Virus record (IMG/VR): IMGVR_UViG_3300036770_004125
Span: 1-63,732 of that record
Strand: one strand, 5' to 3'
Origin: a virus
Lineage: Duplodnaviria; Caudoviricetes
Length of the DNA: 63,732 nucleotides
A program made the translations under genes and the position numbers. Below the pieces are notes generated by a model. That model ran no database searches and was not told the DNA's origin. It saw only the letters and a list, made by a program, of their open reading frames with translations. This document shows, in pieces, positions 5,366-62,634 of this stretch; position 1 is the stretch's first letter, and the number at the start of each line of letters is the position of its first letter.

Positions 5366-5431
5366 TTTTTTCTCCTAAGTCTCAGTTTATCTAAAAAATA
5401 TTTATTAAAAACTTAATTTACAAAAGATAAA

Positions 5432-19000: not shown

Positions 19001-20608
19001 AGCAACAGCAACCCTACTATTTCTTATTCCATCAAAAGTAAATGATTCATTCTTCAAAAATTTACCATTGACATTATAAAGAGTAAGAGAAGTTGTATTT
19101 GTTGCAGTGTCTTTCAAATATCCAGTTGCACCACTTGAATTGCCTATTACATAAGTTGGTACAGTTAATGATATTGGTTGATTTAGTGTAATTTTTGTAT
19201 ATGTTTGAATATCATAAAGAGATAGATCCCATCGGTTTAAATCTAGAAAAGAACTATAAGATCCTTCTTCTAAAGCAAAATCAAATACTCTAGCAACTCC
19301 AATTTCATCTCCAGAAGATGAAGATGCTACTTCTCCAATTCTACTATCTCTTAAACTAACAGTATATGTATTTCCAATGCCAATAGTTGGAGATCCATTA
19401 ACTCTATTAACTGCCACTGTAGGGCCAGTATAATATAAAACAGATTCAACACCAGAATTTTTTATCGTTCTTGTTTTTGGAATATCTAAAAATGTAGGAG
19501 AATTTATTTCAACTTCATATCCTCTTACATATGCTTTTCCTGGTGAAACTTTATATATTGCAAGTTCTTCTGAAGCTGCATTACCTTGATAAGTTCTTTT
19601 ACCCTCAGAAAAAATGCCATTATTTCCTAATCTATCATTCAAAGACTCTTCACAACTTACTTGGAATCTTTTTACATAATAATCACCAGATTCTTCAAAT
19701 GTTCTCTTTGCGAATTTATCATTAATTAAATTATATAAAGTATCATTTGGAGTATCTCTTAATATACCCCCTTGAACTCTAGCAATTTCTATAAAGTTTT
19801 GATTATTATTATCATCTAATGGTTTTTTATCTAAAAATGCAGTTATTTTTAATCTATCTGCTCCAGGAGCCGCATAATTATTAAATCCTCGTGCATTGTC
19901 AGTTAAAGTTTCATCAAAAGAAGATGATATAATTTCCTCTAATACAGTAAATCCAACTCTATAGTCTGGAGTATTAGTGTATTGATCTAGTATTAAAGTT
20001 TGAGTAGGTACAGTTACAAAATGCCCTCTGAGATAATATACCCCAGTTGAAACTGTAAATGATGAACCAAATGAATTAGAATTTAAAATAACTGTAGAAG
20101 CAAAAGCATCTCCAGAAACAAAAGCACTATTTGATGTTACTAAATTTTCCTCAACAATTAAATTTTCTCCATCCTCAAAGAAAAAACTTTGATTATTTTG
20201 AGTACTTGCATTTAGATAACTAACATATATGGTTGCATTTCCTCTTTCCGATTCATTTGAGGTTAAAGTCTTATCTACAATTGCAGTTATTCCAGATCTT
20301 TCTCCTCTTATTTTTACACCGACCAATGCATCAATATATGATGATACATTGACACCTAAAAATTCATTATTGAGTTCTACCGCATTATAAAAACTATTGT
20401 AACTAGTTTGCCCAGGAATGACTTTGGCACCTTCTTTGAAGATGTGATCGCCAAATTTTTCAATTTGATTTTGTAGTATTGACTGTAATGTAGTTAATTC
20501 TCTAGCTTGAACAGGATATCCAGGTTTAAAAAGAACCCTGTAATAATTTTTATTTTGATCAAAATCATCAAAATATGGTGATACATTAAGATTAGTTTCC
20601 TGTGGCAT
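13076..20608 (-). CDS. Large virion structural protein (cyanomyophage baseplate-associated, DUF4815/VrlC-like)
   Basis: 2510 aa starting MPQETNLNVSPYFDDF...VLFKPGYPVQARELTTLQ; contains DPLAQSF. Confidence 0.85.
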   Translation of the reverse strand: MPQETNLNVSPYFDDFDQNKNYYRVLFKPGYPVQARELTTLQSILQNQIEKFGDHIFKEGAKVIPGQTSYNSFYNAVELNNEFLGVNVSSYIDALVGVKIRGERSGITAIVDKTLTSNESERGNATIYVSYLNASTQNNQSFFFEDGENLIVEENLVTSNSAFVSGDAFASTVILNSNSFGSSFTVSTGVYYLRGHFVTVPTQTLILDQYTNTPDYRVGFTVLEEIISSSFDETLTDNARGFNNYAAPGADRLKITAFLDKKPLDDNNNQNFIEIARVQGGILRDTPNDTLYNLINDKFAKRTFEESGDYYVKRFQVSCEESLNDRLGNNGIFSEGKRTYQGNAASEELAIYKVSPGKAYVRGYEVEINSPTFLDIPKTRTIKNSGVESVLYYTGPTVAVNRVNGSPTIGIGNTYTVSLRDSRIGEVASSSSGDEIGVARVFDFALEEGSYSSFLDLNRWDLSLYDIQTYTKITLNQPISLTVPTYVIGNSSGATGYLKDTATNTTSLTLYNVNGKFLKNESFTFDGIRNSRVAVAVTSYGISDVKSIYSSNSSSFFNADTVLSSSYIIGICSITASSAGISTIVIPGVEYLDNLKVNDIVSFTDSDILGVKKYAKVTEVTDNNNLSTLVKIVGVSTVVGVCEGGLPDQNISVLDLSVLNSNYLPGLSNTLYAPLSKKNVSNVNLTNSSLIIRKQYNVNITNYATETIPSGSNQAFLPYDEERYALFTSGGSIEPLSEDRVQVSTDGKELQIKGLTAENDTGAILIATLRKTNIKSKVKKKTRVKTLIVDKSTVTTSGIGTATRNDGLEYGNYPYGTRVQDREICLNVPDVIKVHGIFESLGISDPSAPKAVLSTIINSTSTTSDLVIGEKIVGKRSNAVAIFAERISFNQITLIYQNDAVFQVGEIVEFKESGTIAVISSLETPSKNITKSFTYDTGQNDTFYDYGKIVRKEGILEPQAKIKIFFEYAYYDSQDDGDITTASSYQLFDYKNDIPVHNGYRVTDIIDIRPRVSDYVVSEGARSPFEFQGRKFNQQGNSASDILASDESIPLDYDFYLPRIDRIFVDKNKNFIVKTGIPDENPKAPQPVEDSLEIATVFLPPYLYDTKKASITIFEHKRYQMSDISKLETRIKNLEYYTTLSLLETETSNLQILDSAGINRFKSGFFVDNFSSLSTQEDKIGIRNSVDPFLNILRPSHYTTSIDLLLATRGGLGIGSTTNEDIQNISTSDIIGTNIRKSGDIVTLNYSDIEFIKQPYATRTENVQPYILTFWKGDIKLNPSSDIWIDTVRLDPLTVQIEGNYLSTLNQLSKTQGFDPQTGLGPIVWGSWSLLGYGNPRWVDARKSGTGRRGGGTAESESVRNDFMDAKSSNPSAFSKVKPEPGVVPTGGLYVQVVDALYGRSGTRLSVTESFETRSLGDSVASVDIQPYIRSRNVEFRASNFKPYSTIYAFFDGVDVTNQCFPKLINITMNSGTFIIGETVDFKKSEGSTVEGSFRVAAPAHKKGPFNSPTETFTENPYSPGQSISNYSSSSTLLNIDTSSLSLMSDTSYYGLIRPDYILVGRTSGAIAVVSSTTLIPDKFGDIIGSFFIPNPNIIQNPKFNSGIRKFVLTSDPTNQPVTVGTSGESDYFAEGKTQKIQEKIISIRNAKIDVITVNDTKTGEPQFTGLYIDPLAQSFACDEPNGVYLTKLDVYFETKDASIPVTCQIRTMDLGFPTQTILPFSTVSLNPDQVNVSDDASVPTTFEFESPVYIEGNQEYAIVLLSNSTSYFVWISSILGRDPEVAEEPFAPPLDTLTGERITTQPILGSLFKSQNASTWTPSQYEDLKFTLYRAEFTTNPGSVNFYNPKLTKGNNQVPTLISNPLDFISRKIRVGLSKTITESESNFPIGSEVTQASSGAFGIYAGKVGIATGGTSPKTGISIDNVGIGYTPSLGYFTYPNVPLIAITGTGNGATANITIEDGVAIGATIVSGGFGYQIGDVLTVDNLGVDNLGRNLRISIGEINQFNEIILEDVQGNFNIGAGNTITFINSSGLTVNLNSGSGGNVLPVSPITVENDGLHFRVRHLNHGMHSSLNYVELSGVTPDVPPSKITQTISNDFVGSLPVTNSTIFVNFEGLAVSPSNPGYAILNGEIIKYLGVSNGSLIDITRGIKNTVVSSHNQDSEIRKYEINGVSLLRINKTHRLEDATIDNPVGLDYYTLKVSQESFIDGDLEITDRTPSSSLTPALYFLSSKFDGGFEVSSTQNMQFEVLTPLIETFTPNETNVSAQVRTVSGKSISGNEESFIDQGFSPISLGEYNYFSTPRLICSSVNETNLLSDLPGNKSFNIALTLSTNDSRISPCVDLTRASVVTTTNRVNKIVNDDEYPGDNRVNSLTRDQNAFLYVSKTIRLQNPATSLKLYVSADINIFSDIRALYSIDNKENSDPIFELFPGFNNLNNLFETIDPENSDGRPDSFVERNSILDFENNNFKEYEFTANSLPSFTHYRIKLIMTSTSQSYVPQLKDIRAIALA

Positions 20609-25200: not shown

Positions 25201-25484
25201 GGAAGAATAGTTGTTGATACTCCAGAAATAATAGTAGAAGCAATTCCTATAGGAACATCTTCATTTTCCTCATCATAAAAATATTCTATTTCTTCTCCAT
25301 TTGAATAAAAATTATCAATAATTCTTATAGTATTTGAAGGTATTCTTACCACAGAAGAGGAGTCAGATTGTATTGGGCGTTCAAATATCAATAAATTATT
25401 ATAAGTTAATAAAAATGAGTTAACTTCTCCAAGTGTAGGATCTCTATATTCACCGGAAGAAGAAGAAAAAGAAAGATTACTCAT
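22221..25484 (-). CDS. Baseplate wedge initiator gp7-like, C-terminal part
   Basis: 1087 aa with GSGY repeats and a C-terminal YSWGKI...R.NPLK; ATGA overlap with the upstream ORF. Confidence 0.75.
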   Translation of the reverse strand: MSNLSFSSSSGEYRDPTLGEVNSFLLTYNNLLIFERPIQSDSSSVVRIPSNTIRIIDNFYSNGEEIEYFYDEENEDVPIGIASTIISGVSTTILPKKLYVIKISNIDIRVASTAENALSDPPKPLIINSLGVGQHKFISKNQNKKCLITLDNVIQSPVVSTGITASLNETITRFSPIFELDNISNFKGGDLIKIDNEYMKIYSVGVTTTGGISESKIKVERAVLGTPATAHSIGSTITKFQGNYNIIENILYFISAPYGNELDRLNENISGSDLEYTNLDVRSKFSGRVFLRSGIPLGNEEAYKTNYLFDSLNESFDGYKRSFTLTSNGENISDFSTDNSIILINDIIQTPSRLSGVPLENDFFIEESAGISSVTFVGAAASVSYDVNTSQLPRGGIIFSVGSTEGFGYQPLVSAGGTAIVSVAGTIQSIVIGNNGSGYRSGIQTSVRVGVRTESSQIEYIGIGSIQNGTIISVNITNPGSGYTMSSPPQVIFDSPLSYWNLPLRYSSSSQPGVGTEATIDVVVGQGSSVISFDIRNLGFGYKSGDILTFDIGGQVGVPTNTDLQFEEFKIFVTDVRNDEFNGWSLGELQVIDNIDTFFDGERKIFPISINGNRVSIRPRIGYDIDLSANLIITINNILQTPKKSYDIRGGSLISFTEPPKKEDKCRILFYRGTKDVDTRDFDILETIKEGDNVRIYDRLDELNQDFRTVEEVITSDTIRTNIYGGEGISTDQDLSRPMIWCRQTDDKFINGNEVTKDRIIYEPLIFPETYLIQPVSSSSTEFFVENIKTFFDSSNEYELSENFQDKILLLSQETLRPAIASPVVVSNSVSNIQIIDSGTGYTESPSITISSPIPIGSGSTCTASTSINSNGEITTITIVNPGSGYTPTNPPTAIIEEPSISYELIDDISYEGDFGSIIGIGTTSMGGGIFGIYFDFYIPVDSYIRDQLVNRVGIATTGISGIKTDYYFTISNSNIGNNIDSLKNDDTSIGVSTNFIDNVYQVYDYSIGLKNIPGIGVTYVNTILTKVSNLDGIDESFGEYFGDYSWGKIISLRRRSPKEFKSYPVGITSSTIVRRYNPLKYSNYFA

Positions 25485-28400
25485 ACAGTTGTGACTCCAT
25501 CTTGACTGTTAATTCCTATAATTGAACTTAATATTTTAATTTCATAACTAATATCTTCATATGGAGTAAAGTAAAGTTCAAAATTTCCATTGGTATTGTT
25601 AATTTCAGAAGTAAATTCACCTATAGAACCATCAAAATTCAATACACCATATTCAACGACTAAAGATTCTTGTATTGAATTATTTAATAGAGTAGTCATT
25701 TCAATAAATTCAAATTTATTATTTGTTTTATCTTCAATTAAAATAATATTATAAGTTGCCGAATATCTAGTAGAATGATTAAAGACTAGTTTTTCTTCTG
25801 GAGTTCCTCCAGTCATTGAAGTTGAAATAAAATTGGAAGTTAAATCATTTCCTAAAATATCCAAACTTCCTTCAGTAGTATTAGTAGAGTCAATAGAAGT
25901 AATAATAGCATTCACGAATAGTGAATTTCCAACTCCAACACTTGGATGTAATTTTAATACTAGTTCATTACTCTCAATAGATGAACTAAATGTAACTATT
26001 CCAGATGTATGACTTGAACTAAAATTTGTATTATTTAAATCGCCATAATCATTAATCAAAACATCTGTATTATTGTGAAGTAAACTTATCTCATCAAATT
26101 GATAATAAGAATCTTCTTTATCTGAAATAGTAATTAGTATTTTATATGATCTTTGAGATGTAGATATTCCAGGAAGAGAAATAGGATCAGTCTCATTTTC
26201 TGCAATGATTGTATTTACATACTGAATTTTAGCAATGTCACCAATTTCTAGTGTGGTATTACCAACACCAACCAAGGTATCGCCAATTCCGAATGAAAAT
26301 GTGTTATATTTGTAAATCTTTCTTTCTGTAATTGAAGGGTAATAAAGCAATTGCCCAAATCTATCAATTTCGGTTTGGAAGTCAAAATAACCCAATGAAT
26401 CTTCACTAGAAATTATAGCATATTGATTTAAAAATCCATTTACATCATCATGCAACAAAGAAACAAGTAAACATTCTGATCTAGTTGGATCTAAAATATC
26501 ATAGACATATACAAAATATTTTTTGTAACGAATATCTGCTAATTCAAAATTATCAATAACTTGGAAATTTCTTGGTTCTGTTGTAGTAAATTTATCAGAG
26601 ATATCATCTATTACTAAAACTCTATTTCCTATAGATTCAATATAATCCTGAAGTATTCTAGAATCAAAATAAATTTCATTAGATTTTATTTTATTATTTG
26701 TTATGAAATAATTTTCAGATACGAGGTCAAAGTCATGGACACAATTAAAATTAATAAATTCTGATGATACACTTTCCGAATAATAATTTCCGAGATCTTG
26801 TGATGTAGATATTCCTGTATTAAAATTCTCATCTTGTACTAAAAGATCACTAAATCTTTTGAAACCAGAAGTATGAGTTATGTTACCAACAACATCATTC
26901 CACTTATTGATGTCAATCGGAGATTCTACGGAATATGAAAAATACTGATAATAATCACTATCATATATTCTTTGATTATTGTTATTTAAAAATCCGGTTT
27001 CTAATTTCCATCCCTGTTTTACAGTTGCATTTGATTTGATATCCAGATAAGTGTCAAATGATATTATATTCTCAATAATTGCCTTTACATTAGATGATTG
27101 TCCAACTAAAATATCACCAACAGTAAAATCTTTATTTGAAATAACTTTTAAGTAGTTATTTTCATTATCCCACCCCTTTACTATACCAGAATTATTAGAT
27201 GAGACTACCGTTTCATCTTTACTAAATTCAATAACTTTTAAGTTTGAATTAAATTCTGGAAGATAATTTTTAGGTATTACAGTTCCTTTAGAAAATCTAG
27301 TATCATAATCTCCGGGGATTTCTTCAGATCCTAAAAGATTTTCTAGACTATATGTGAAATTAGCACCACTTCCTCCAAAATTTGGAGTTAAAGTTTTAAT
27401 TTTAAATAACCTATATCCATAGTTTTCAGAGTTGTATCCTTTATCATTCTCAGATTCTACACTAACATTTTCAATTAATACTTCTTCTCCAATAGAAAAT
27501 GGGAAAGTAGATGGATCATTATATTGACCTTCAAGTATAACTGTAACATCTTTAGAGATATTATCATAAAAAATATCATTGATTAAAAATCCATTATCAT
27601 TATTGATAGGAATTATTGATGGTTCTAATTCACTAATACCCTTTGTATTTTGTATTATGGAAACCTTATTAGAATCAATGTCATATTTCAACTGCACATC
27701 ATCAACAACCTCATTTGTTATTCCATCCAATACAATTAAATCAGGATTAGATATGTAATTTTTTCCTCTGCTTGTAACTTCAATATAGTCAAAAGTATTA
27801 AAAGGTAAAATCTTAAGTATTGATGGGAATATGCACTTTGGTCTGACAGTAGTATCAAGAGAATAATTAAATCCAATATCTTTAATCTTCACATTATTGG
27901 AACTTACATTTCCAATAGTACTAGTAAAGATTTCTAAAATAGCACCACTACCATTTTCACTAATAATTTCTTTTACTTTTGGTACTTTTTTGTATAATTT
28001 TTTAGAATTATTTACGGAAACTTTTGATATTCCTCCAGATGTATTTGGAGAATCAGTTTCATAACTAATAATAGAATTATCACTGTCATAAACTAAAGAT
28101 TCTACCGGATTGGTTGTATTAAACAAGAATGTATTTGTAGTATAATCTATAATTTGCTGTTTACCTTGAATTTCACTATTAATTAATAAAATTTTATTAT
28201 GCTCTATTTGCTCTTTATCAATATAAATTTCCTTTTTATTTGGAGGGGTATTCAGCAAATCAATTGGAATCAATGAATAGTATAGATCATTTGGTAAATT
28301 TTTGGTTTTTAAAGTAATTGTTGAAGTACTTCCTATTCCAATAGATCCCGATTTTATCAGATCAAAAGTTCCAAATTCATTTTTAAAATTCTTATCATAG

Positions 28401-31400
28401 AATAATTTTAGATCAAATGCAGACTTACTTAATTGTCCAGATCCATATGATAAAGAAGAATCTGAAACATCAAATATAATATCTTGATATTTTATAATTT
28501 CTATTCTTGGATTTATAAGGGATAATTTTCCTTGACCAAGTGAAGTCAAATCTATTAAATTTGGCAACTCTTTTCTAGATTCAAATAAATTATCACACAA
28601 ACCTATAGTATTAGTGTCTATTATGACAGCATAATACATTTTATTATTCACTAATCCTCCAATAGGAGAATCTTCAGTATAAATTAATTTTTCTCCAGTC
28701 TTAAATTTATGGTTTGAAATTTGAAGAGTATTATTTTCTAGGTTTATATCTTCAACTATTCTAGGATTTACTACAAATCTTCTATTTTCTTCATTATAAA
28801 TTAATTTTATCGTAGTTGAAATTCCAGATTCTACATTAATGTCTACTATTTCTTCTAAAGTTAGTTCATGTGGTTCTGATGTAGAAACAATACTAATGTT
28901 TTGAGATAAGACACCACTCAAAATATTTGGATAATCAGTTTTAAAACTATGATAAGTATTGGTTCCAATTCCAGAAAAATAAACAATACTATTAGTTGTT
29001 GTTCCTATTCCACTAACTTCTCCATCTTCATTAATTGAAACTGGTTGTGTTGAAATTCCTATTAAGTCATCACTTAATCTTACTGCATATACGACACTAT
29101 TTGATTCTAATTCAAAACTATTTACTGAGTCTATAGAAATTGATATTGGAGATCCTTCATAGGAATTGTAAATAAGTTTATCGTTTGTGTTTATTCTATT
29201 TTTAGGTAAGTATATGGATTTTGTTGGAATATTTAAAACATTCCACTTATTCAAATTAGCAGTAATAACTGTTCCTGGAAAAGATGATGAATCAAAATCA
29301 ATTTTTATTAAAGTACTTCCTATTGAAACAATTTCTTTTCTTGTTGTGTTGTACTCTACATTTGAAGCATTTACTATATCAACATACCCACCAGAAGAAT
29401 ACTTACTTATGTCTGATTGATTTTTAAAGTAAATTGTTGTTTCTACACCTTTCTCTATTGTAATAGGAGTATTAAATGCATTTACTGAGAAAAATAAAGT
29501 TGATGATATCCCTACTCCAGAGGTTAATCCCAATCCAACAGAAATTTTAGGATCAAAATAATACTCATCATTTGCTCTATAATTATGAAAATTAGATGTT
29601 ATTCCAGTATTGAATATAACCTTTCTTGACAAAGAGGTTAATTCATCTCCAGCACTATGAGATGTGCTAATACTTGAGTTTACTGATCTTAAAACTCTTA
29701 ATTGATAATTGACACGATCAACATTTAAAATCTTAACTACTTCAGATCCAATTGAGTATAAATCATTTTCTTTTATTATAAAATCTAGATCTCCATAAAT
29801 TCTAAAACTTGTTACAAACCCAGTAACATTAACATCATTTACATCTTCTGCCAAAGATAGAGTATTTTGTATGACCTGAATTCTGTCTACTTTTTTATAC
29901 TCATACTTTGAAGTTAATGTAACTAAAGAATTATTATACAAATTATGAGGAACTGAGGAAATTCCTATAAATTCTCCTGTAATCTCATATGGATAAAATT
30001 CAAAAATATCAGTGGTAGTTGTGTATGATGTTATTGAAGATATATTTTTTCCTTTGATTTTAGTTACTCTTCCATTAATAAACCCATCGTCAAATATAAT
30101 GGGATCACGAACTTTATAGTCATCTCCAGGATTAACAATATTAATGAAATCAATAGTTCCTGAAGTTGTAAACTCAACTTCAAGATCTTGTTTTTTATCT
30201 TCAAATGGTTTGGGAATATATTCATAACCACTTCTATCATTTAAGAGATTGTAAGGAGTAGTATTTCTTAGTAACTTTTTATCTCCAAAAATAGTCTCAT
30301 CAAGAATTGTTTGTTGATTGAAATTAAATTGTATTTGTTCACTTCTATAAAAATTTCCTATAACATAAGGAAAAACCGGAGTTTTATAGTTTAAAAATGG
30401 ACCCTCGCCAGTTCTTTCTGTGAAAGTGGAAAAATATGCATAAGTCCCATCAGGGAACTCTGGTGTTTTACAGTATCTTCCATTAGATTCATCCAAATCA
30501 CCACTATTTGTAAATTCATAGTCTTCAATAAAAAATCCTAATGGATATATTTCAGCACTTGGTCCAAATAACCTAGTACTCTTTTTAGTATATCCACTCT
30601 TCATCAATTTAATAGGACCAGAATTTCCCGATGCAAATCCATAAGGACCATATATGGGATTTCCATCATATGCCCATCCAATTATTGGAGAGTGTATAAT
30701 TGAGTTTATTTCTTTATTTGAAGTGTCTAGTTGTAAATCAGCAATATAATTTTGGTTAGTATTTTCTGAGGTTTTTAAATATACTGATGATCTTAAAGAT
30801 CTAGATGGATATAAATGAACATATTGAAGGCCATTTAATCCATTAATTATTATTCCATCATCCGAATATATTTTTTCTTTTTTGATATACTTTTCTACTA
30901 AATTAATTCTCCATGATTTAATAATAGATTTAAATTTTGCATTATTCCCAGGAACAAGTACACTTAAAAAAGTACCTTTTTGAGTATATCCAAATCCTCC
31001 AGAAATAACCTTAACCTCTACAATAGATCCATTTGAAACAACGGGAACTAAAACAGCACCAAATCCATCTCCATTAATAATTATGTCAGGAACTCCTTTA
31101 TAATTTAATCCAGGTGATTGAATAATAACCTTTTTTATTGCTCCATTATCAATTATGGGGGTCAATTGTGCCCCACTGCCCTCAAGTAAAGAAATACTTG
31201 GTTGCCTATCAAAATTTATAATATCAGGAGATCCATAACCTACTCCACCATTTTCTACAAATACAGACTGTATTTTTCCTCTAAAAACAGGAACCACTTT
31301 TCCATAATACTCCTGTGCCAATGTGGAGGAAGTTCCAACTTTACCATTAAGAATTACAGTTATTGGAGGATAATTAAAATAATGATTAAAAGATTCTGGA

Positions 31401-34400
31401 TTAATAGTAAAATTAATATATTTTTTATTATTAAAATATAGTTGTGGATTATTATCTGGTCCAGTTTCTGATAATTTTACTTCATTATTTGAAATTTTTG
31501 TAACATAATATGATTGCGAAGAAGTCAATCCAACAATCGGGGAATTTTGCGGATAATATACAATTATTTCACCATCAGAGTATCCATGATTAACTATAGT
31601 TAAAGTGTCAGATGCCGTGCTTATCCCTGAAATTTTAGTTTTTTTATTTTGATAACCTATTCCTGAAGATATTATCTCAACAGAACTTATTTTTTTATTG
31701 GAAGAAGTTGATCTAAAAGAATGAACACCAAAACCTTCTTCATAAAATATGACGGTGTTTATTCCTGAAATGGCATCTTGTAAACTATTATGCAATTTAA
31801 CTTTAAAAGAATCTACTATGGAAACATAGTATTCTGAATTTGTGTTTATTCCAAGAACACTTTTTTGATTATTTGTGGTATAAATTACCCTTTCATAATT
31901 TTTAAACCTATGATGTTCAGAAAAATCAATAATATTATTCGTAATATCAACAGTTTGTGAATTAAACTCCGGAGAATTGATTGAGTCAATTAGTCTAACT
32001 TTCGCCTGAGCACCAAAACCATTACCACCACTTATGGTTATCTTTGGTTCTTCAATATAATCAAATCCAGGATCAATAACATCTATTCGTTTTAATTCTC
32101 CTATTACCGAACAATATGCATTACATCCAGTACCAATCAAATCAGTTACTGATAATTGAGGTGGGTTAATTACATCATAATCATTACCTTGTGATGTAAC
32201 AACTATTTCTTCTATTGGACCATAAAAAATCTTATCTGTAGACTTATAATTTAATAATTCAACACCATTTACAAAAATCCCAGTAGTACCGTTATCAGTT
32301 TCTTTTCTATCCGAAACTAGTTCTGTTTTTGTTATTTTTTTGAATAGATTTTGTGACTTCAACTTAAATGAATTCAAGTTGACATCAGCAAATCTTAAAA
32401 GTTCTAATCTAGATTGGTTTAAATTTCCAGTAATGGTGATATAATTTTCTTTAAAAATATTTTCTTTACTTCTTGATAATTTGATTGTATTAGTATCTTC
32501 AACTTTTACATAATAAACTGATGTTGTTAGTCCAACTCCGTCTATCTTAATATTACTCTCAGGAGAAGGTCTAAAAATTATAGCATCTCCAGTATAATAA
32601 CTATGATTTAAAACATTACTATTTCCAGTCGTAATAGAATCAATTACTATTATTTCATTAGATTCTGGTAAAGTTACATCAACAAATCGGTAAGAAAAAT
32701 CATCTATATTAATCGGAGTATTTAAATAACTTGGTAAAGAAGAGGAACTGACATATAAAGAATTGTCAAAATCAATATATGTATTTTGTACATTTGTATT
32801 ATAAGTTTTATAGGTTTCTATTGTATCTGGATCAGAATTAAATACTGTATTTTGATTAACATTGAGTTTTGATATTCTTTTTCTTATTTTAGATGCTAAA
32901 CTTAAAGAGGGAAATTCCTGTTCATTTTCAGGATTTATTTTTGTTACTTTAGAAATAATTTGCTTTGAATTATTAATTTCAGAAACTATTCCATAATATT
33001 TTGTATTAGTAGAGAAAAATATTTCTAATTCATCTCCTTTAACAAAATTATGATTATCAAATAAAGTTATTTTTAAATCAAGAATATTTGTATTTTGTGT
33101 GGGACTTAAATCCTCAATACTTTTAATATCATAATTTGTTGAAATATTAAAGAACCAGTTATTTTCTCTTACTCCCTTACAGTCTTCTCCAAGAGTTTTA
33201 ATGCTTATCACATCACCTTGCTCATAATAAGCATTCGTATTAAAAGAATCAATTCCCGATATAACACCAGTTATTCTTACTCTAACTTCTTCATTATTTG
33301 AATTAAAACCATATGCATAATTATTAATTTTTACTTCTGTACCTTCAGGTATTTCAATGGAAGGTATACCGCTACATCCTAAAAATTGATTTATAACTTT
33401 TGAAGTGTAAGTGATAATATACCTTGTTTCAAAATCACCTTCTAAATTTAAATCAACAACTAATTCTCCGGAGTCTGGAAATCCTATTGTAGAATCTACA
33501 TCCAAATAAGTTAAATTTGGAAAAACTCTACTAGTTAAAATTGTTTTAGGGTGAATTTTAAAATCACTTTTAATTGATCCAAAAACATCAATATCTTTAT
33601 CATAACCAGAATCTAAACTTATAGTGTAATAAATTTTTCCGTTTCTAGAAATTCTTTTCACATCTGATATGGTTCCTCTAGAATCGGAAAATATTCCACT
33701 AGAATCTTTATCTTGATAAAGAGTACCATTAATTAATTCTAAAGGGTCTCCAGAAACAGACTCTACGACTAGATCTTGTGTTACTCTAAATTGAGCATCG
33801 GATGGTTGTATAAGGTAATCTCTTGGTAAGATTATTTTTGGAATAACTCCATATAATGCTCCAAATAAAATTTTAAAAGAACCTTCAGTTCCCTTTGAAG
33901 TATAAAGATTGTTTGATTGTTTTATAAAAAGTCTTTCATTTAAAGATTCATAGAAATCTTTATTTTCTAATCCAGGAACAATTTGCTTTTTAATTTTAAT
34001 AAAAAACTCTTTTAAAAATAAAATGCTGAGATTGAATACTTTAGTTTTTTCTTCAGAAACAATAGATAAATGTTCGGAAGATTCACTTTCAGTAAAAATT
34101 AATTGATCTTCCCTTATGTTATCTTTAAGTGATGTTATTCCACTAAATCCTCTAATACACCCCAAAAATGAGGAAGAAGTTTTATTTGTATAGGTAATAA
34201 TCTCATCATCAATTAAAAGTAATCCATAAGAATCTGGAAATCCTTCAGTTGAATCTACTAAAATTTCAGTATCAAATAAAGTAAGATCGGCATTTAAATT
34301 AGTAAATTCGGTTAAATTTGTTAAATTATCAATTTTTATATAATTATCAATATTTTGAATTATATCTGAAGCACTACCTTGAGATTCTAAGGACAAATAA

Positions 34401-34501
34401 TATTGAGATAGAAACTCAGATACAAGAGGATATTCTTCTCTTATAAATTCTGGAAGTTGATTTTCAATAATTGAACTAATTTTAATTCTGTTTTCTAGCA
34501 T
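25481..34501 (-). CDS. g7: Baseplate wedge initiator gp7-like, N-terminal part
   Basis: 3006 aa starting ENQLPEFIREEYP; SKGTEGSFKILF, HSPIIGWAYDGNPIYGPYG, DSDYYQYFSY; follows g6. Confidence 0.8.
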   Translation of the reverse strand: MLENRIKISSIIENQLPEFIREEYPLVSEFLSQYYLSLESQGSASDIIQNIDNYIKIDNLTNLTEFTNLNADLTLFDTEILVDSTEGFPDSYGLLLIDDEIITYTNKTSSSFLGCIRGFSGITSLKDNIREDQLIFTESESSEHLSIVSEEKTKVFNLSILFLKEFFIKIKKQIVPGLENKDFYESLNERLFIKQSNNLYTSKGTEGSFKILFGALYGVIPKIILPRDYLIQPSDAQFRVTQDLVVESVSGDPLELINGTLYQDKDSSGIFSDSRGTISDVKRISRNGKIYYTISLDSGYDKDIDVFGSIKSDFKIHPKTILTSRVFPNLTYLDVDSTIGFPDSGELVVDLNLEGDFETRYIITYTSKVINQFLGCSGIPSIEIPEGTEVKINNYAYGFNSNNEEVRVRITGVISGIDSFNTNAYYEQGDVISIKTLGEDCKGVRENNWFFNISTNYDIKSIEDLSPTQNTNILDLKITLFDNHNFVKGDELEIFFSTNTKYYGIVSEINNSKQIISKVTKINPENEQEFPSLSLASKIRKRISKLNVNQNTVFNSDPDTIETYKTYNTNVQNTYIDFDNSLYVSSSSLPSYLNTPINIDDFSYRFVDVTLPESNEIIVIDSITTGNSNVLNHSYYTGDAIIFRPSPESNIKIDGVGLTTSVYYVKVEDTNTIKLSRSKENIFKENYITITGNLNQSRLELLRFADVNLNSFKLKSQNLFKKITKTELVSDRKETDNGTTGIFVNGVELLNYKSTDKIFYGPIEEIVVTSQGNDYDVINPPQLSVTDLIGTGCNAYCSVIGELKRIDVIDPGFDYIEEPKITISGGNGFGAQAKVRLIDSINSPEFNSQTVDITNNIIDFSEHHRFKNYERVIYTTNNQKSVLGINTNSEYYVSIVDSFKVKLHNSLQDAISGINTVIFYEEGFGVHSFRSTSSNKKISSVEIISSGIGYQNKKTKISGISTASDTLTIVNHGYSDGEIIVYYPQNSPIVGLTSSQSYYVTKISNNEVKLSETGPDNNPQLYFNNKKYINFTINPESFNHYFNYPPITVILNGKVGTSSTLAQEYYGKVVPVFRGKIQSVFVENGGVGYGSPDIINFDRQPSISLLEGSGAQLTPIIDNGAIKKVIIQSPGLNYKGVPDIIINGDGFGAVLVPVVSNGSIVEVKVISGGFGYTQKGTFLSVLVPGNNAKFKSIIKSWRINLVEKYIKKEKIYSDDGIIINGLNGLQYVHLYPSRSLRSSVYLKTSENTNQNYIADLQLDTSNKEINSIIHSPIIGWAYDGNPIYGPYGFASGNSGPIKLMKSGYTKKSTRLFGPSAEIYPLGFFIEDYEFTNSGDLDESNGRYCKTPEFPDGTYAYFSTFTERTGEGPFLNYKTPVFPYVIGNFYRSEQIQFNFNQQTILDETIFGDKKLLRNTTPYNLLNDRSGYEYIPKPFEDKKQDLEVEFTTSGTIDFINIVNPGDDYKVRDPIIFDDGFINGRVTKIKGKNISSITSYTTTTDIFEFYPYEITGEFIGISSVPHNLYNNSLVTLTSKYEYKKVDRIQVIQNTLSLAEDVNDVNVTGFVTSFRIYGDLDFIIKENDLYSIGSEVVKILNVDRVNYQLRVLRSVNSSISTSHSAGDELTSLSRKVIFNTGITSNFHNYRANDEYYFDPKISVGLGLTSGVGISSTLFFSVNAFNTPITIEKGVETTIYFKNQSDISKYSSGGYVDIVNASNVEYNTTRKEIVSIGSTLIKIDFDSSSFPGTVITANLNKWNVLNIPTKSIYLPKNRINTNDKLIYNSYEGSPISISIDSVNSFELESNSVVYAVRLSDDLIGISTQPVSINEDGEVSGIGTTTNSIVYFSGIGTNTYHSFKTDYPNILSGVLSQNISIVSTSEPHELTLEEIVDINVESGISTTIKLIYNEENRRFVVNPRIVEDINLENNTLQISNHKFKTGEKLIYTEDSPIGGLVNNKMYYAVIIDTNTIGLCDNLFESRKELPNLIDLTSLGQGKLSLINPRIEIIKYQDIIFDVSDSSLSYGSGQLSKSAFDLKLFYDKNFKNEFGTFDLIKSGSIGIGSTSTITLKTKNLPNDLYYSLIPIDLLNTPPNKKEIYIDKEQIEHNKILLINSEIQGKQQIIDYTTNTFLFNTTNPVESLVYDSDNSIISYETDSPNTSGGISKVSVNNSKKLYKKVPKVKEIISENGSGAILEIFTSTIGNVSSNNVKIKDIGFNYSLDTTVRPKCIFPSILKILPFNTFDYIEVTSRGKNYISNPDLIVLDGITNEVVDDVQLKYDIDSNKVSIIQNTKGISELEPSIIPINNDNGFLINDIFYDNISKDVTVILEGQYNDPSTFPFSIGEEVLIENVSVESENDKGYNSENYGYRLFKIKTLTPNFGGSGANFTYSLENLLGSEEIPGDYDTRFSKGTVIPKNYLPEFNSNLKVIEFSKDETVVSSNNSGIVKGWDNENNYLKVISNKDFTVGDILVGQSSNVKAIIENIISFDTYLDIKSNATVKQGWKLETGFLNNNNQRIYDSDYYQYFSYSVESPIDINKWNDVVGNITHTSGFKRFSDLLVQDENFNTGISTSQDLGNYYSESVSSEFINFNCVHDFDLVSENYFITNNKIKSNEIYFDSRILQDYIESIGNRVLVIDDISDKFTTTEPRNFQVIDNFELADIRYKKYFVYVYDILDPTRSECLLVSLLHDDVNGFLNQYAIISSEDSLGYFDFQTEIDRFGQLLYYPSITERKIYKYNTFSFGIGDTLVGVGNTTLEIGDIAKIQYVNTIIAENETDPISLPGISTSQRSYKILITISDKEDSYYQFDEISLLHNNTDVLINDYGDLNNTNFSSSHTSGIVTFSSSIESNELVLKLHPSVGVGNSLFVNAIITSIDSTNTTEGSLDILGNDLTSNFISTSMTGGTPEEKLVFNHSTRYSATYNIILIEDKTNNKFEFIEMTTLLNNSIQESLVVEYGVLNFDGSIGEFTSEINNTNGNFELYFTPYEDISYEIKILSSIIGINSQDGVTTV

Positions 34502-50582: not shown

Positions 50583-51119
50583 ATGAAAATAACATCACGG
50601 AAAGTATCAGAAATTGAAGGTCTAGAGAATTATAAAGACTACTTCGTTACAATTAAAGGAGAAGTCTATTCTTCAAAGTATAATAAGATTCGTAAGTTAA
50701 AACCTTGTTACCTTACTACAAAAGGTTCTTATCAGATTGTTCGTTTATCTGATGGTAAGGGTAAAACAAAGAACTTTTATGTACATAGACTCGTTGCACA
50801 ATTGTTCTTATTAAATGTAAATGAATCTTGGGCAGTAGAACATATCAATGGGGATCTTGAAGATAACTCTGTTGACAATCTAAGATGGGCAGGTAGAAAA
50901 ATATCTAAAGATTCTGATGAGTTGGATAGTGAAAGAATCTATCTTGGTGATGACATCAGTAATTACATTAAACTTGTTCATTCTGCCTCAGTGCAAAAGG
51001 GAATCCCAGTACCAGGAAAACTTGAGTTCTTTCATGGTATGATCAATCAGGCAATGGAAGATTATATTAACAGATTTGGTCTAAAGAAGACAATGTACCA
51101 GATAGAGCATTCTTCATGA
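50583..51119 (+). CDS. NUMOD4/HNH endonuclease-like protein
   Basis: YFVTIKGEVYS...VHRLVAQLFL...VEHINGDLEDNSVDNLRW; the only convincing + strand gene. Confidence 0.8.
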   Translation: MKITSRKVSEIEGLENYKDYFVTIKGEVYSSKYNKIRKLKPCYLTTKGSYQIVRLSDGKGKTKNFYVHRLVAQLFLLNVNESWAVEHINGDLEDNSVDNLRWAGRKISKDSDELDSERIYLGDDISNYIKLVHSASVQKGIPVPGKLEFFHGMINQAMEDYINRFGLKKTMYQIEHSS

Positions 51120-51572
51120 GATTACTTCCTTATAAAGATCAACAAGATCATCAGCAAACCAACAACGTTTATCTGATTGTCTCATAAGAACTCTCATTTG
51201 ATTTTGAATTTCAGTCCATTCAGTGAGAGTTGTTTCCATATTCACATTCTCAACATGAGTAAGAATAAAACCAATAAAAGTATAAGGGCAAGTTAGGGTT
51301 TCTTGCATATCTTGCCTTCTCCAGTATTCACGACACAGAGCATTGATTGCAAGTGAAGACTGGAGTTTTTCAACAATAGAGTAAATTCCGACTCGCTTAA
51401 AACAGTATTGCGGTTCTCCGTGACTATAACCTTTTGAATGATAATTTTGAATATCTTCTTTCCATTCCATTAGATCTCTCTTACTCATTTGAAATGGATT
51501 CCAGGTTTTTTGAACCAGTTCTTGGCAAATCAATTCCCATTCAGAGAATGACAACCAGACATTACGAGACAT
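51114..51572 (-). CDS. Cassette ORF, hypothetical
   Basis: 152 aa, downstream of palindrome 51632 and TATAAT. Confidence 0.7.
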   Translation of the reverse strand: MSRNVWLSFSEWELICQELVQKTWNPFQMSKRDLMEWKEDIQNYHSKGYSHGEPQYCFKRVGIYSIVEKLQSSLAINALCREYWRRQDMQETLTCPYTFIGFILTHVENVNMETTLTEWTEIQNQMRVLMRQSDKRCWFADDLVDLYKEVIS

Positions 51573-51657
51573 AAGAGTTTGTTGCGTATGAGAGTATTAT
51601 AAGGTGCTGGTGAGAGTGGTGGTGATGTGACTGTGCCACTTTTCAAACTGGCACATT

Positions 51658-52302
51658 TTATTTTAGCGAATAGATGTAGATATGTTTACCTGGAGTTTGA
51701 ATATATTGTGCTTCACCAGATTCAAGAGCATCTTTGACTCTTTGAGCAAATGGTTTTAATTTCTTGTTTCCATGAGTATCTACATGATAAGTACGAATAC
51801 ACTTATCATGATAGATCTTACCATTATAATCTATGACTCTACCTTTTGCAGTAAGACCATGATATTCAAAATTTGATGCTTTATAAATCGTTCCTTGATG
51901 ATTATGAAATGTATCTGCATAAGAAATTACCATTTTATAATTGGTATTTCTTTTTAACCATTTTAAAGTTTTACCAATAAAAAAAGATTCGGTATTTCTT
52001 GGAGTATGATCAATACAGCAAAGGCGACGGAGTTCTATAATTTCACTTTCAGAATCTACATATTTCTTCCAGGTGTTCGCCATTCCAAGGGGGCCGTAGA
52101 TCATTGCTCCGATCAGTTCATGATCATGAAATAAACCAAAAACATGAGAAATGCGTAGACCATTGACACTCGATGAATAATGCCATTTTTCCACAAAATC
52201 CCTGACATATTGAATTGTAGTTGGTTTTACTACAAAATCCTTGACATTTGCATTTCTACAATCAATATCTTCATAAAGTAGGGATGATAGTGGATTCAAC
52301 AT
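51658..52302 (-). CDS. Mom-like (GNAT-fold) DNA base-modification protein
   Basis: VEKWHYS, ELRRLCC, RNTESFFIG, VISYAD...HQGTIYKASNF. Confidence 0.75.
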   Translation of the reverse strand: MLNPLSSLLYEDIDCRNANVKDFVVKPTTIQYVRDFVEKWHYSSSVNGLRISHVFGLFHDHELIGAMIYGPLGMANTWKKYVDSESEIIELRRLCCIDHTPRNTESFFIGKTLKWLKRNTNYKMVISYADTFHNHQGTIYKASNFEYHGLTAKGRVIDYNGKIYHDKCIRTYHVDTHGNKKLKPFAQRVKDALESGEAQYIQTPGKHIYIYSLK

Positions 52303-52825
52303 CGTAATATGTTTCTTGAATGACCTTTAATATTGTATCATAAACATCGGAATAATTCATCTCAATTTTTGACCAGAATGCTTCTCCACCAAGATATAAA
52401 ATTCCATTTTTTTCAAACTCATAGGAAGAACTCAGAGCAGTTGCAAAAAATGGTTTTGTTCCGTTTTTTGTAGTTGTATTCAAAAGTTTTTGAATTGAAT
52501 CGTCTTTGTGAGTACCCGTCTGAGTGTTAATATTTAACTTAATTTGTCCTTCTCCAAAATCTGTGTGAAGATCAATACCAGAAATTCTTTTGTTTTTTGA
52601 ATCAGTATTGATGACATTTTTTCCACACTTGGCAGCGATTTCCTGAATGGTATTACCAAGACAAGTTGTGAAAGTTCTCTCAAAGGTACAATATACATTG
52701 AGTTGTGGAAATGCCGCCTTGATGATATTCAGGTTTTGTTTGTCTTCCTTTATATTTTTAAGAATCTTTGCGATTGTTTTCTTCTTGATTGGAAGAAGAA
52801 TTTGATAAATCTCATTTTTAATCAT
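52271..52825 (-). CDS. PD-(D/E)xK nuclease, Eco47II-like restriction endonuclease candidate
   Basis: FERTFTTCLGNTIQEIA...GIDL...GQIKLNINTQTG...GGEAFWSKI. Confidence 0.55.
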   Translation of the reverse strand: MIKNEIYQILLPIKKKTIAKILKNIKEDKQNLNIIKAAFPQLNVYCTFERTFTTCLGNTIQEIAAKCGKNVINTDSKNKRISGIDLHTDFGEGQIKLNINTQTGTHKDDSIQKLLNTTTKNGTKPFFATALSSSYEFEKNGILYLGGEAFWSKIEMNYSDVYDTILKVIQETYYDVESTIIPTL

Positions 52826-52831
52826 AAAACC

Positions 52832-53287
52832 TCAACGACGATAGAGATAAGACCCAGCCCAATCGGCATATTCAAGCAACCATTCACGATCCTTGATCAA
52901 TCGCAGATCATATCGCACACCTTTTGCAGGTGCTTTCCAACTCGCAGACTTATAAACCTCACCAGTCTTCTTATCAACAAAGGCATGGACTGATTTGGCA
53001 CCACGAGCACTCATAATGATCTTGTGATACTTGCGACCAGATTCAATGAAGAACTCATAATCACATTTACCATTCTTGAGTTTTTCAATTTGTTCCTGAT
53101 GATAGGAAACATAACTTGCATCCACAATACCATTATTGTCAATGGCGTGTTGATGCGAACGAATGGAATACTGAATGAAGTTCTGCCGCAGTGCCTCACA
53201 GAGAGCATAGGTATGTCCCAGCACGGCAAGTTCAATGTCCTTTCGTGCTTCTTGATTGGCGGCGTAGTCAGAGAAGGTGGTGGTCAT
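52832..53287 (-). CDS. Phage hypothetical protein
   Basis: GRKYHKII...SVHAFVDKKTGEVYKSASWKAPAKGVRY. Confidence 0.8.
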   Translation of the reverse strand: MTTTFSDYAANQEARKDIELAVLGHTYALCEALRQNFIQYSIRSHQHAIDNNGIVDASYVSYHQEQIEKLKNGKCDYEFFIESGRKYHKIIMSARGAKSVHAFVDKKTGEVYKSASWKAPAKGVRYDLRLIKDREWLLEYADWAGSYLYRR

Positions 53288-53364
53288 GAGAATTGATTGC
53301 GTATGAGAGTATGATAGGGCACTGGGAAGTGCCCTGGAGTGGTCAGTGGACAGTTGTGAAAGTG

Positions 53365-53940
53365 TCAGTCCTCCATGCCAACAAGATACATTTTAGGTGC
53401 AAGATGAGAAGTCAGATTCTCAGTAACTTCAGTGTTCACATCGCCAAGATGCTCTTGAATTGCCTCAGGAATCAGTTGAAGAATCAGTTTTTGGAAACGC
53501 TCATCTTCCCTGATGTAAGTTGCTACATCATCAGCAAGTGCTTCGGCAAGTTTTGCGTAACTGATTGCAGAAAGTCCCATTGATTTTTTCTCCTGTTTTG
53601 GTGTTTCAATAGTGTGCTTAACCCATTTTTCATTCTTCTTCTCTGCTCTCAGAGAAAGATTTGCCCAACGATCAATGCTGCTACCATAATACTTGTTGAT
53701 GATGTTGGTAGTGCATTGATCACCTTCAGAATCACGGAAACCATATCCACGATACTTTTCATTTGCAGCAATTGTATCATAAATGATCTTCTGTGCAATC
53801 ACAGGATCAGTATTGGTCGTGATTACTTCATAAACAAGCGCATTGATCTCATCAATGATATACTCAGGAGTGAAAGAAAAGCACTCCCATTCATCACGAT
53901 CACAGAAGAGTTTGTGATTGGTGTGGTCAAAAGTAATCAT
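53365..53940 (-). CDS. Cassette ORF, hypothetical (possibly two fused units)
   Basis: 191 aa with an internal MGLSAISY segment. Confidence 0.65.
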   Translation of the reverse strand: MITFDHTNHKLFCDRDEWECFSFTPEYIIDEINALVYEVITTNTDPVIAQKIIYDTIAANEKYRGYGFRDSEGDQCTTNIINKYYGSSIDRWANLSLRAEKKNEKWVKHTIETPKQEKKSMGLSAISYAKLAEALADDVATYIREDERFQKLILQLIPEAIQEHLGDVNTEVTENLTSHLAPKMYLVGMED

Positions 53941-54017
53941 GAGGTGTCTGTGTGTATGAAAGTATTATAGGGCATCATGGGGCACTGGGAAGTGCCCTTG
54001 TGCCAGTTGTTCAAGTG

Positions 54018-54494
54018 TCACCAGGATGCATGATACTCAAATTCCCAAGATTCGGGAGCATGACTGAGAATCTTTTTCAGAACGGGAATGGTATTCTCCA
54101 GATCCCGAAAATACCATTCATCATACTCAGTCCCTCCAAAGAAGAAACCTGACTGAGAAGGCAGCAGTTCTTCTGCACGACTCCTATCTTTCAGGATAGT
54201 TTCACACCTCCACAGAAGATCTTTCAGATGATCCCGGTCAACATAAGTATCCTGACATTCATCTTTACCATCAGCACACTTATCCACAAAATACTTGTGA
54301 ATTTGATTTGCTTTTCGCCAATATGCGACTTGCAGTTTCACTTCTGCAAATTGAACATCACCTTCTTCAGTCATGAAAAACTTGTTGCCCTTCATCAGAC
54401 GAGCAACAGATTTCACCTTTTTAACATCGTCTTCCTTTGCCCAAGAAGATGAAGAAACAAATTCCTTGGCATAGAGATACATGTCAAGACCCAT
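54018..54494 (-). CDS. Phage hypothetical protein
   Basis: MGLDMYL...YWRKANQIH...LLPSQSGFFFGG...YHASW. Confidence 0.8.
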   Translation of the reverse strand: MGLDMYLYAKEFVSSSSWAKEDDVKKVKSVARLMKGNKFFMTEEGDVQFAEVKLQVAYWRKANQIHKYFVDKCADGKDECQDTYVDRDHLKDLLWRCETILKDRSRAEELLPSQSGFFFGGTEYDEWYFRDLENTIPVLKKILSHAPESWEFEYHASW

Positions 54495-61695: not shown

Positions 61696-62634
61696 CTATT
61701 TCTTTTTAATCCTCCCTCTTACCCACCCATCACTAGGATACTCTACTCCTCTTTTCTCAATTTCTCCATTATTCCACCAAAGTTGCCCCTTCATTTTTTC
61801 TTTGTTCTTTTCTCTAATTTTTTGTTTCGTTTCTTCATTATGAGTTCTACCATAGAAAGAATTTTTTTCACCTTTTCTATCTTCACTCATTTTATTTTTG
61901 ACTTCATCAGTATGAGTTTTTCCATAAAATGGATTTTTATCACCAAGTTTTGCCAATCTTATATTTTCTATTGCTTTTTCTGTATGTTTTAATCCAAGAT
62001 TTCTAGTAAAATGACTTATATCTAACTCTAATTCTTTTATCCATTTGTTTATACAATCATAAACAATCTCACTTTTCATTCTTCTTGCAACTTCATTTTT
62101 ACTATGAGAAGTTTTAACTACATCAATAAACATTTCTCTAAAATCTAAATCGTGAATTTTTAGGTAAGTTCCCCTTCTTCTTCCTTTTCTGGTTTTACTC
62201 ATTTTATCTTTGGTTTCTTGAGATGCTTTTCTTCCCAAGTGCTTTTCTCTTATTTTTTGTTTCCTTTCTTCACTACAAGGAACACCATAACTTGGATTAT
62301 TTTCACCACCCATTCTTTCTTTCATATTATCAATATATCTTTTCCTCACTTGCTCGTATAAGTGAGAATTATACTTTTCACTACGATTTCTCATTAAGAA
62401 ACACGCAAGGTTCATTTTCTTTGTTCTTTCATCATCAATTCCATACCGTTTGATGCAAATTTTTTCCAATAATAAATGTGCGATATAGTGTTCTCTTGGA
62501 GTAAAAATAACAATTCTATCATTTTTACCGAAAATACTTTTTGGAAATGTATGATGCTTTTCTATGTAACCTTCAGGAGGAGTTCTATTCTCTGCTTTCC
62601 TTATGAGGTTACAATAAACCTTTAGATAATTCAT
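61696..62634 (-). CDS. Free-standing HNH homing endonuclease with NUMOD3 repeats
   Basis: YIEKHHTFPKS...TPREHYIAHLLL; repeats NPFYGKTHTDEVK and NSFYGRTHNEETK; WWNNG...GWVRGR. Confidence 0.88.
   Translation of the reverse strand: MNYLKVYCNLIRKAENRTPPEGYIEKHHTFPKSIFGKNDRIVIFTPREHYIAHLLLEKICIKRYGIDDERTKKMNLACFLMRNRSEKYNSHLYEQVRKRYIDNMKERMGGENNPSYGVPCSEERKQKIREKHLGRKASQETKDKMSKTRKGRRRGTYLKIHDLDFREMFIDVVKTSHSKNEVARRMKSEIVYDCINKWIKELELDISHFTRNLGLKHTEKAIENIRLAKLGDKNPFYGKTHTDEVKNKMSEDRKGEKNSFYGRTHNEETKQKIREKNKEKMKGQLWWNNGEIEKRGVEYPSDGWVRGRIKKK

Follow-up and report, generated by a model that had tools for sequence, protein, structure and literature searches.

Overlapping genes for a Mom-family modifier and a restriction-endonuclease-like protein

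Within a 63,732-nucleotide (nt) virus fragment (IMG/VR record IMGVR_UViG_3300036770_004125, positions 1-63732; hereafter, the window), we examined two overlapping open reading frames (ORFs) on the minus strand, one encoding a 214-amino acid protein of the Mom family of DNA modifiers (51658..52302) and the other, immediately upstream, a 184-amino acid protein with a predicted restriction-endonuclease fold (52271..52825). Each begins with an ATG codon, and by their ORF coordinates the 3' end of the nuclease-like gene and the start of the Mom gene share 32 nt (52271..52302, minus strand), an overlap from which co-transcription and translational coupling of the two genes are probable. An initial annotation, made from the letters of the sequence, had described these two ORFs as a candidate non-methyl restriction-modification pair. 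The overlapping frames lie exactly where it placed them, and the motifs that it quoted are all present in the translations: WHY, ELRRL, NTES, ISYAD and GTIYKASNF in the 214-residue protein, and LGNTIQE, GID and QIKLNINT in the 184-residue protein. The genes are also AT-rich, as it had remarked, with G+C contents of 32.4% and 31.5% compared with 34.7% for the window. Both are under purifying selection, with NG86 ratios of nonsynonymous to synonymous substitution (dN/dS) of 0.11-0.31 for the nuclease-like gene and 0.06-0.12 for Mom (six pairs each), values which are rough owing to near saturation of dS.

The 214-residue protein matched the Pfam Mom model (PF25680) at 132.2 bits against a cut-off of 27.1 (E 2.5e-38), with residues 23-214 aligned to model positions 2-186 of 202, and phrog_1384 with an E-value of 1.7e-62. 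By BLASTP it is 27% identical to phage Mu Mom across 149 residues, and this alignment places H41, Y42, R93, S106, D130 and Y140 opposite Mu residues H48, Y49, R101, S114, D139 and Y149 (231-residue numbering), mutation of each of which is reported to impair Mom function (PMC7261163). Two of these positions, R101 and S114, correspond to R111 and S124 in the full-length numbering of Mu Mom, which Silva et al. (2026) describe as essential (PMC13219725); the equivalents here are R93 and S106. The alignment stops at Mu residue 184, and the helix-turn-helix-like insertion needed for activity spans approximately Mu residues 175-209. On the strength of these sequence matches, the 214-residue protein is clearly assigned to the Mom family, with all six functionally important Mu residues kept, which agrees with the Mom-like modifier first proposed for this ORF. 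As reported in PMC13219725, Mom takes glycine from Gly-tRNA(Gly) and attaches it at N6 of adenine in S-A-S motifs of double-stranded DNA, after which the product rearranges on the base; glycyl-tRNA(Gly) is there reported as the donor in place of acyl-CoA.

Predicted fold and active site of the 184-residue protein

An AlphaFold (AF2) model of the 184-residue protein, built from 24 homologues, reached a predicted local distance difference test score (pLDDT) of 91.6 and a predicted template modelling score (pTM) of 0.85. The best PDB match returned by Foldseek was the restriction endonuclease EcoO109I (1wtd_B; E 2.1e-3, probability 1.00, template modelling score 0.54), followed by Ecl18kI, DdmD, HindIII, BamHI, McrC and AvaII. 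A second look with VIA-align gave Z-scores of 8.9 for EcoO109I 1wte (164 of 184 residues aligned, root-mean-square deviation 4.0), 8.1 for 1wtd (173 aligned) and 6.3 for AvaII (139 aligned), with mostly other PD-(D/E)XK nucleases in the rows below. This structural evidence for a PD-(D/E)XK restriction-endonuclease fold, which the initial annotation had expected of the upstream ORF, is good but not overwhelming. The best structural matches, R.EcoO109I (RG^GNCCY; 1wtd/1wte; PF14511) and R.AvaII (G^GWCC; 6s48), are distant in sequence, with structural-alignment identities of 12-13% and 9%, respectively, and EcoO109I, at 272 residues, is approximately 90 residues longer. The resemblance to Eco47II-type enzymes suggested at the outset did not hold up: the 184-residue protein has no PF09553 match, a relative designated P0069 scored 16.4 against the required 25.9 bits, and one member of a second small family (family B, described below) matched with an E-value of 0.27, leaving EcoO109I and AvaII as the nearest solved relatives.

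At the sequence level, 62 relatives were retrieved at E <= 0.001 from a large protein collection, nearly all of them unnamed; one, from Synechococcus phage DSL-LC03, is named "type II restriction endonuclease". Among the 24 homologues, weak Pfam matches were obtained to RE_EcoO109I for eight (best E 0.002) and to RE_TdeIII for six. P0069, which is 37% identical to the query (E 3.3e-17), exceeds the gathering score of RE_EcoO109I (PF14511; 26.4 vs 22.5 bits). Membership of the 184-residue protein in the EcoO109I family may therefore be proposed transitively, through P0069, the protein itself having no match to the profile at E <= 1. Pattern scans of 185,579 bacterial and archaeal species genomes, with the family alignment and with P0069, found no relative. 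A search for relatives of 323-2000 residues turned up neither extended nor fused versions of the nuclease, which is weak evidence.

The 24 homologues all share four putative catalytic residues (E49, D85, Q94 and K96). In a wider set of 16 sequences, D85 and K96 again show no variation and Q94 is almost constant, one member having D-x-K instead. The glutamine stands where the (D/E)xK motif normally has an acidic residue. According to PMC7337904, AvaII is an active enzyme which uses E123, D147 and Q161-x-K163, with the glutamine acting as a metal ligand; since AvaII shares the E...D...QxK pattern with the 184-residue protein, the Q-x-K variant is no argument against activity. The same substitution could nevertheless be taken to mean that the protein does not cut, and that it instead serves Mom as a DNA-binding specificity or regulatory partner, loosely like the com gene product of phage Mu. 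Such a role would fit with the upstream position of com, which likewise overlaps mom, and with the statement in PMC13219725 that Mom in Mu needs no partner. Besides the activity of AvaII, however, this explanation has to contend with the invariance of D85 and K96 even in distant relatives, with the occurrence of D-x-K in one relative and of E-x-K at the aligned position in family B, with the unrelated size of Com (62 residues by its annotated coordinates), and with the many closely related Mom genes that have no 184-residue protein beside them. We therefore judge a non-cutting partner to be very improbable. A predicted complex between the two proteins received no support (score 0.00), a result which is uninformative for or against binding.

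Recurrence of the pair

When IMG/VR was scanned using the nuclease alignment, 28 loci were identified. At 21 of them the nuclease gene is directly followed by an overlapping Mom gene, 2 lie at a contig edge and end directly after the nuclease gene, and 5 lack Mom. All 21 close relatives that could be assessed are followed by an overlapping Mom gene, and the co-occurrence in other genomes that the initial annotation would predict extends to DSL-LC03, whose annotation shows the two genes as neighbours with an overlap of 38 nt. In the closest relative (L002) the overlap is the same as in the window. None of 50,697 phage records represents a cultured phage with the pair, the sole match being DSL-LC03, which is metagenome-assembled (PMC10611076). 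In a metagenome scan with P0069 alone as the query, two contigs carrying this protein (L114 and L115) were found to encode a 193-residue Mom protein (Pfam 123.4 bits; 44% identical to that of the window) whose gene stops 1 nt short of the nuclease start. The association of nuclease and Mom thus holds at 37% nuclease identity and with the gene order reversed.

The association does not extend to the surrounding genes, as none of the ten ORFs flanking the pair in the window recur in 23 of 24 loci of this nuclease family (hereafter, family A). In L002, the DUF7717 gene found upstream of the pair in the window is located on the opposite side, downstream of Mom. The conserved unit therefore consists of the two genes only.

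The five loci without Mom form a clade at 44% identity, with nuclease proteins of 204 residues. At one of these loci (L026) we also observed, 1.6 kb upstream of the nuclease, a weak DUF7717 relative that does not reach the cut-off (2074-2421; E 5.2e-05), and downstream of the nuclease a 217-residue protein with an HHDLGK motif (4710-5363), HD-phosphohydrolase-like in appearance, and a 428-residue protein (5418-6704), neither of which has a Pfam match.

Mom genes with other partners and a second candidate nuclease family

By tblastn, Mom was detected in 293 phage records and the 184-residue nuclease in only 1, and Mom occurs alone in S-SSM7, RaK2 and ICP1. We surveyed what precedes Mom at 80 IMG/VR loci, of which 67, with at least 650 nt of upstream sequence, were counted without de-duplication. 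A family A nuclease was found upstream in 10 of the 67, and in 22 its place is taken by a different ORF of 179-204 residues (family B) which overlaps Mom by the same approximately 32 nt. The remaining loci have a second Mom paralogue (6/67), the glycine dehydrogenase GcvP (3/67), a PF01555 methyltransferase (2/67) or assorted other genes (24/67). The dependence is one-sided: the nuclease is tied to Mom, Mom is often found without the nuclease, and the partner is exchangeable.

Comparison of family B with family A by hhalign (probability 76%, E 2.3e-5, 84 columns) aligned E79-x-K81 with Q94-x-K96, within the D...E-x-K motif of family B. The structural model of family B is of moderate quality (pLDDT 71.9), and its best Foldseek match, again EcoO109I, is weak (E 0.15, probability 0.33). 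Mainly on the basis of the hhalign match to family A and the D...E-x-K motif, family B would represent a distantly related second nuclease family. In a tree built from 59 distinct Mom sequences, tips labelled by partner as A (17) or B (12) are intermixed, requiring at least seven partner changes for family A and at least five for family B, of which strongly supported branches force at least two each; this was a quick tree, with support assessed only by the Shimodaira-Hasegawa-like approximate likelihood ratio test (SH-aLRT).

Two of the other arrangements also involve genes that overlap the Mom start. At six loci (L068-L071, L100 and L110) the overlapping gene is itself a divergent Mom paralogue, giving tandem Moms (at 2274-3008 in L100); the paralogue is 244 residues long in five of the six, and in L068, the one checked, it matches Pfam Mom with an E-value of 1.3e-18. 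At three loci (L065, 287-3010; L066; L107) a glycine-cleavage P-protein of 907-909 residues (Pfam GDC-P, E 2.2e-165) overlaps the Mom start. Since the Mom donor is reported to be glycyl-tRNA, the coupling of a glycine-metabolism gene to Mom may be no coincidence.

Distribution of methyltransferases

In classical type II systems the nuclease is accompanied by a methyltransferase. We searched for five methyltransferase families (PF02086, PF01555, PF00145, PF02384 and PF05869) in five records carrying the pair, namely the window, the complete 172.8-kb genome of DSL-LC03 and three IMG/VR contigs; each family was found in none of the five, and Mom, used as a positive control for the search, was recovered in 3/3 records. 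In the clade lacking Mom, PF02086 and PF00145 were likewise found in none of five records, whereas a PF01555 methyltransferase is present in four, the fifth contig having only 4.6 kb upstream of the nuclease. In one of these (G005), the methyltransferase (519 residues; L116, 369-1928) is encoded on the strand of the nuclease and 5.6 kb upstream of it, with nine ORFs of at least 80 residues listed between the two. A relative of this enzyme (431 residues, 44% identical, PF01555) immediately precedes Mom in L072 and L073 (7-1302). The records of the Mom-less clade are 7-14% complete. The complementary pattern of Mom and methyltransferase is suggestive only, given that the methyltransferase is not adjacent to the nuclease, that these records are so incomplete, and that a relative of the enzyme adjoins Mom in L072 and L073.

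Genomic setting of the cassette

The window, a 63.7-kb fragment with an estimated completeness of approximately 30%, comes from a T4-like myovirus, with PHROGs recognising portal protein, large terminase, head-closure and baseplate-wedge proteins; at the nucleotide level it has few matches, to Synechococcus phages. Two very long minus-strand ORFs of 2510 and 3006 residues (13076-20608 and 25481-34501) are situated among the baseplate genes, and no tRNA genes were detected in the window. Upstream of the pair, the DUF7717 gene (52832..53287, minus strand; Pfam E 5.1e-47) ends 6 nt before the 184-residue ORF. Beyond Mom, at a distance of 540 nt and on the plus strand, is an HNH endonuclease gene (50583-51119; phrog_959, E 2.3e-23), and a homing-endonuclease-like gene on the minus strand (61696-62634; phrog_655, E 1e-38) is located 9 kb further on. 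The region surrounding the cassette is rich in mobile nucleases.

The palindrome previously reported at 51632 is real and lies 2 nt past the Mom stop codon (minus strand). It forms a hairpin (51632..51655) with a 7-bp stem, in which TGTGCCA (51632-51638) pairs with TGGCACA (51649-51655) around a 10-nt loop. As RNA, its folding energy of -11.7 kcal/mol (z -1.4) is unexceptional, with 19 of 200 shuffles folding equally well. No T-run follows the hairpin and a terminator scan of 51000-54200 gave 0 terminator-like sites; it is not a canonical intrinsic terminator.

The cassette might alternatively be a selfish, homing-like element, whose nuclease cuts related phages lacking the cassette at co-infection so that repair copies it in, with Mom shielding the carrier. 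The mechanism would be the same as that of a restriction-modification-like system serving the phage, and the beneficiary would be the cassette instead. The conservation of the two-gene unit alone amid differing flanks, the repeated switching of nuclease families on the Mom tree, and the HNH and other homing endonucleases nearby would all fit. The fold, on the other hand, corresponds to orthodox type II enzymes and not to known homing endonuclease families, homing enzymes usually require no modifier, and neither a target nor an empty-site pair was identified. We consider this explanation quite unlikely.

Avoidance of short palindromes and the recognition site

Counts of short palindromes in the window were compared with those expected from a maximal-order Markov model. 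Many are strongly depleted: TCGA has 9 occurrences against 90.7 expected, and AGCT (19 vs 75.4), ACGT (11 vs 58.3), GGCC (13 vs 43.7) and CCGG (24 vs 50.4) are also scarce. Counts below expectation were likewise obtained for CATG (115 vs 210.4), TGCA (249 vs 373.4), GTAC (73 vs 130.4) and GGWCC (17 vs 38.0), whereas GATC is not depleted (277 vs 305.5). This suggests that the phage is under strong restriction pressure despite its Mom gene, and does not indicate the site of the nuclease. A GGNCC- or GGWCC-like site, considered by analogy with EcoO109I and AvaII, was dropped because several unrelated 4-mers are far more depleted than GGWCC. The central G-A-C of GGWCC is compatible with the S-A-S motif of Mu Mom.

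Pressure from host restriction of this kind would act regardless of any phage nuclease, and could point to two independent functions that merely travel together, with Mom only evading host restriction, the nuclease having a separate role independent of the Mom mark, for example in host-DNA breakdown for nucleotides, in recombination or in repair, and the linkage reflecting shared mobility in a variable region. The frequency of Mom without any nuclease and the position of the cassette among variable genes and homing endonucleases are in keeping with this explanation. It does not readily account for the retention of an overlapping Mom by every assessable close relative of the nuclease, or for an association that survives at 37% identity with the order reversed. 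Furthermore, an unguarded sequence-specific nuclease would threaten the phage's own DNA, and the complete genome with the pair contains none of the five methyltransferase families. We regard independent functions as unlikely.

A proposed restriction-modification-like cassette

From these observations, it seems probable that the pair constitutes a phage-borne cassette resembling a restriction-modification system, in which a Mom mark takes the place of methylation in protecting phage DNA. Mom would mark adenines in the double-stranded phage DNA after replication and, by analogy with Mu, the reaction may involve transfer of glycine from Gly-tRNA(Gly) to adenine N6 in S-A-S motifs, with the product rearranging to N6-carbamoylmethyl-adenine. 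The 184-residue protein would act as a minimal EcoO109I/AvaII-like PD-(D/E)XK endonuclease, presumably as a dimer, with E49 and D85 as predicted metal ligands, Q94 where an acidic residue is usual, and K96. Sensitive to the Mom mark, it would cut unmarked DNA, whether that of the host or of co-infecting phages, and the 32-nt overlap might couple synthesis of the two proteins such that no nuclease is made without its protector. The earlier interpretation, that the phage protects its DNA by a non-methyl modification while the nuclease cuts host or competitor DNA, is supported by every computational test available; both the protection and the cleavage are predictions.

A number of results nonetheless weigh against this proposal. 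The 184-residue protein matched no Pfam, PHROG or NCBIfam model (at Pfam E <= 1, hence no restriction-enzyme model), and PDB sequence searches with the protein, with two profiles and with P0069 returned no restriction enzyme. Its structural scores are modest, as exemplified by the Foldseek E-value of 2.1e-3, and in an unrestricted VIA search EcoO109I (Z 7.4, 172 residues aligned) appeared amid helical proteins scoring equally (Z 7.4-8.2). E49 is replaced in distant relatives of the wider set. The Mom-less relatives have no Mom gene anywhere on their 17-41 kb fragments, and the methyltransferase in that clade may not be the partner of the nuclease, being 5.6 kb away with nine intervening ORFs. 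The adjacency of Mom and PF01555 in L072 and L073 indicates that Mom and a methyltransferase are not mutually exclusive, and a methyltransferase may be encoded elsewhere in the genome of this phage, of which the window is about 30%. Finally, if just one strand of the recognition site had an adenine that can be marked, one daughter duplex would be left bare after replication; the expected site would therefore have S-A-S adenines in both strands.

Comparison with known systems

The general idea of such a system has already been predicted. Iyer et al. (2021; Viruses 13:63; PMC7824862) described jumbo-phage proteins in which a Mom domain is joined to a restriction-fold domain, and proposed that these represent "momylation" restriction-modification. 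Those systems similarly combine a Mom-family enzyme, proposed to protect the phage, with a restriction-fold nuclease attacking host DNA or that of superinfecting phages. They differ in that the two activities reside in one polypeptide, whereas here two ORFs overlap by 32 nt in T4-like cyanophages, and the 184-residue EcoO109I/AvaII-like partner alternates with a second small family. What is new here is that the pair is unfused, cyanophage-borne and associated with exchangeable EcoO109I/AvaII-like nucleases. Our literature search found no other paper linking Mom with a restriction-fold nuclease, and no experimental test of either a fused or an unfused version. The paper describing DSL-LC03 makes no mention of Mom or the nuclease. 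A cyanophage study from 2025 treats mom purely as counter-defence and states that no cyanophage had previously been observed to carry it (PMC12801897); contrary to this statement, S-SSM7 (GU071098 / NC_015287) carries mom.

The locus resembles mom/com of phage Mu (NC_000929) in belonging to the same modifier family, in keeping its functional residues, and in having an upstream gene that overlaps the mom start. In Mu, however, that gene, com, encodes a small translational activator and not a nuclease, and Mom is used only for defence against host enzymes. The active-site pattern is shared with AvaII (PMC7337904); the gene neighbouring that of the 184-residue protein is Mom and not a methyltransferase. 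As in classical type II restriction-modification, there would be close linkage between a sequence-specific nuclease and an enzyme marking the same DNA, with the nuclease dependent on the modifier and the modifier able to stand alone. In contrast to those systems, the modifier is not an S-adenosylmethionine methyltransferase.

The exchange of partners at a common overlap prompts a broader and more tentative proposal, which we rate as slightly less likely than not, that cyanophages operate with one modifier and many nucleases. A broad, tRNA-dependent adenine hypermodification would protect the phage genome, and small type II-like nucleases could be swapped at the same 32-nt overlap with no re-matching to the modifier, giving the phage a means of attack on host DNA and rival phages that can be varied. 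If the S-A-S specificity reported for Mu Mom (PMC13219725) holds here, the mark would be broad and not site-matched, such that one modifier could serve different nucleases.

Should the nuclease prove to be blocked by the Mom mark, it would provide the first experimental case of restriction-modification based on a tRNA-derived adenine hypermodification, and the nuclease itself might serve as a reagent for mapping Mom-type marks. Both enzymes are small and easily expressed, making the question directly testable. A broad modifier could let nucleases be exchanged without re-matching, which would alter the usual view of specificity matching between the two components; if a single modifier does serve many nucleases, this would be the first restriction-modification logic that is neither methylation-based nor site-matched to its nuclease. 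Phage T4 discriminates self from non-self through hydroxymethylcytosine. If the proposal is correct, abundant aquatic cyanophages would gain through Mom a comparable self/non-self discrimination, and with it a means of host-DNA breakdown or of excluding competitor phages.

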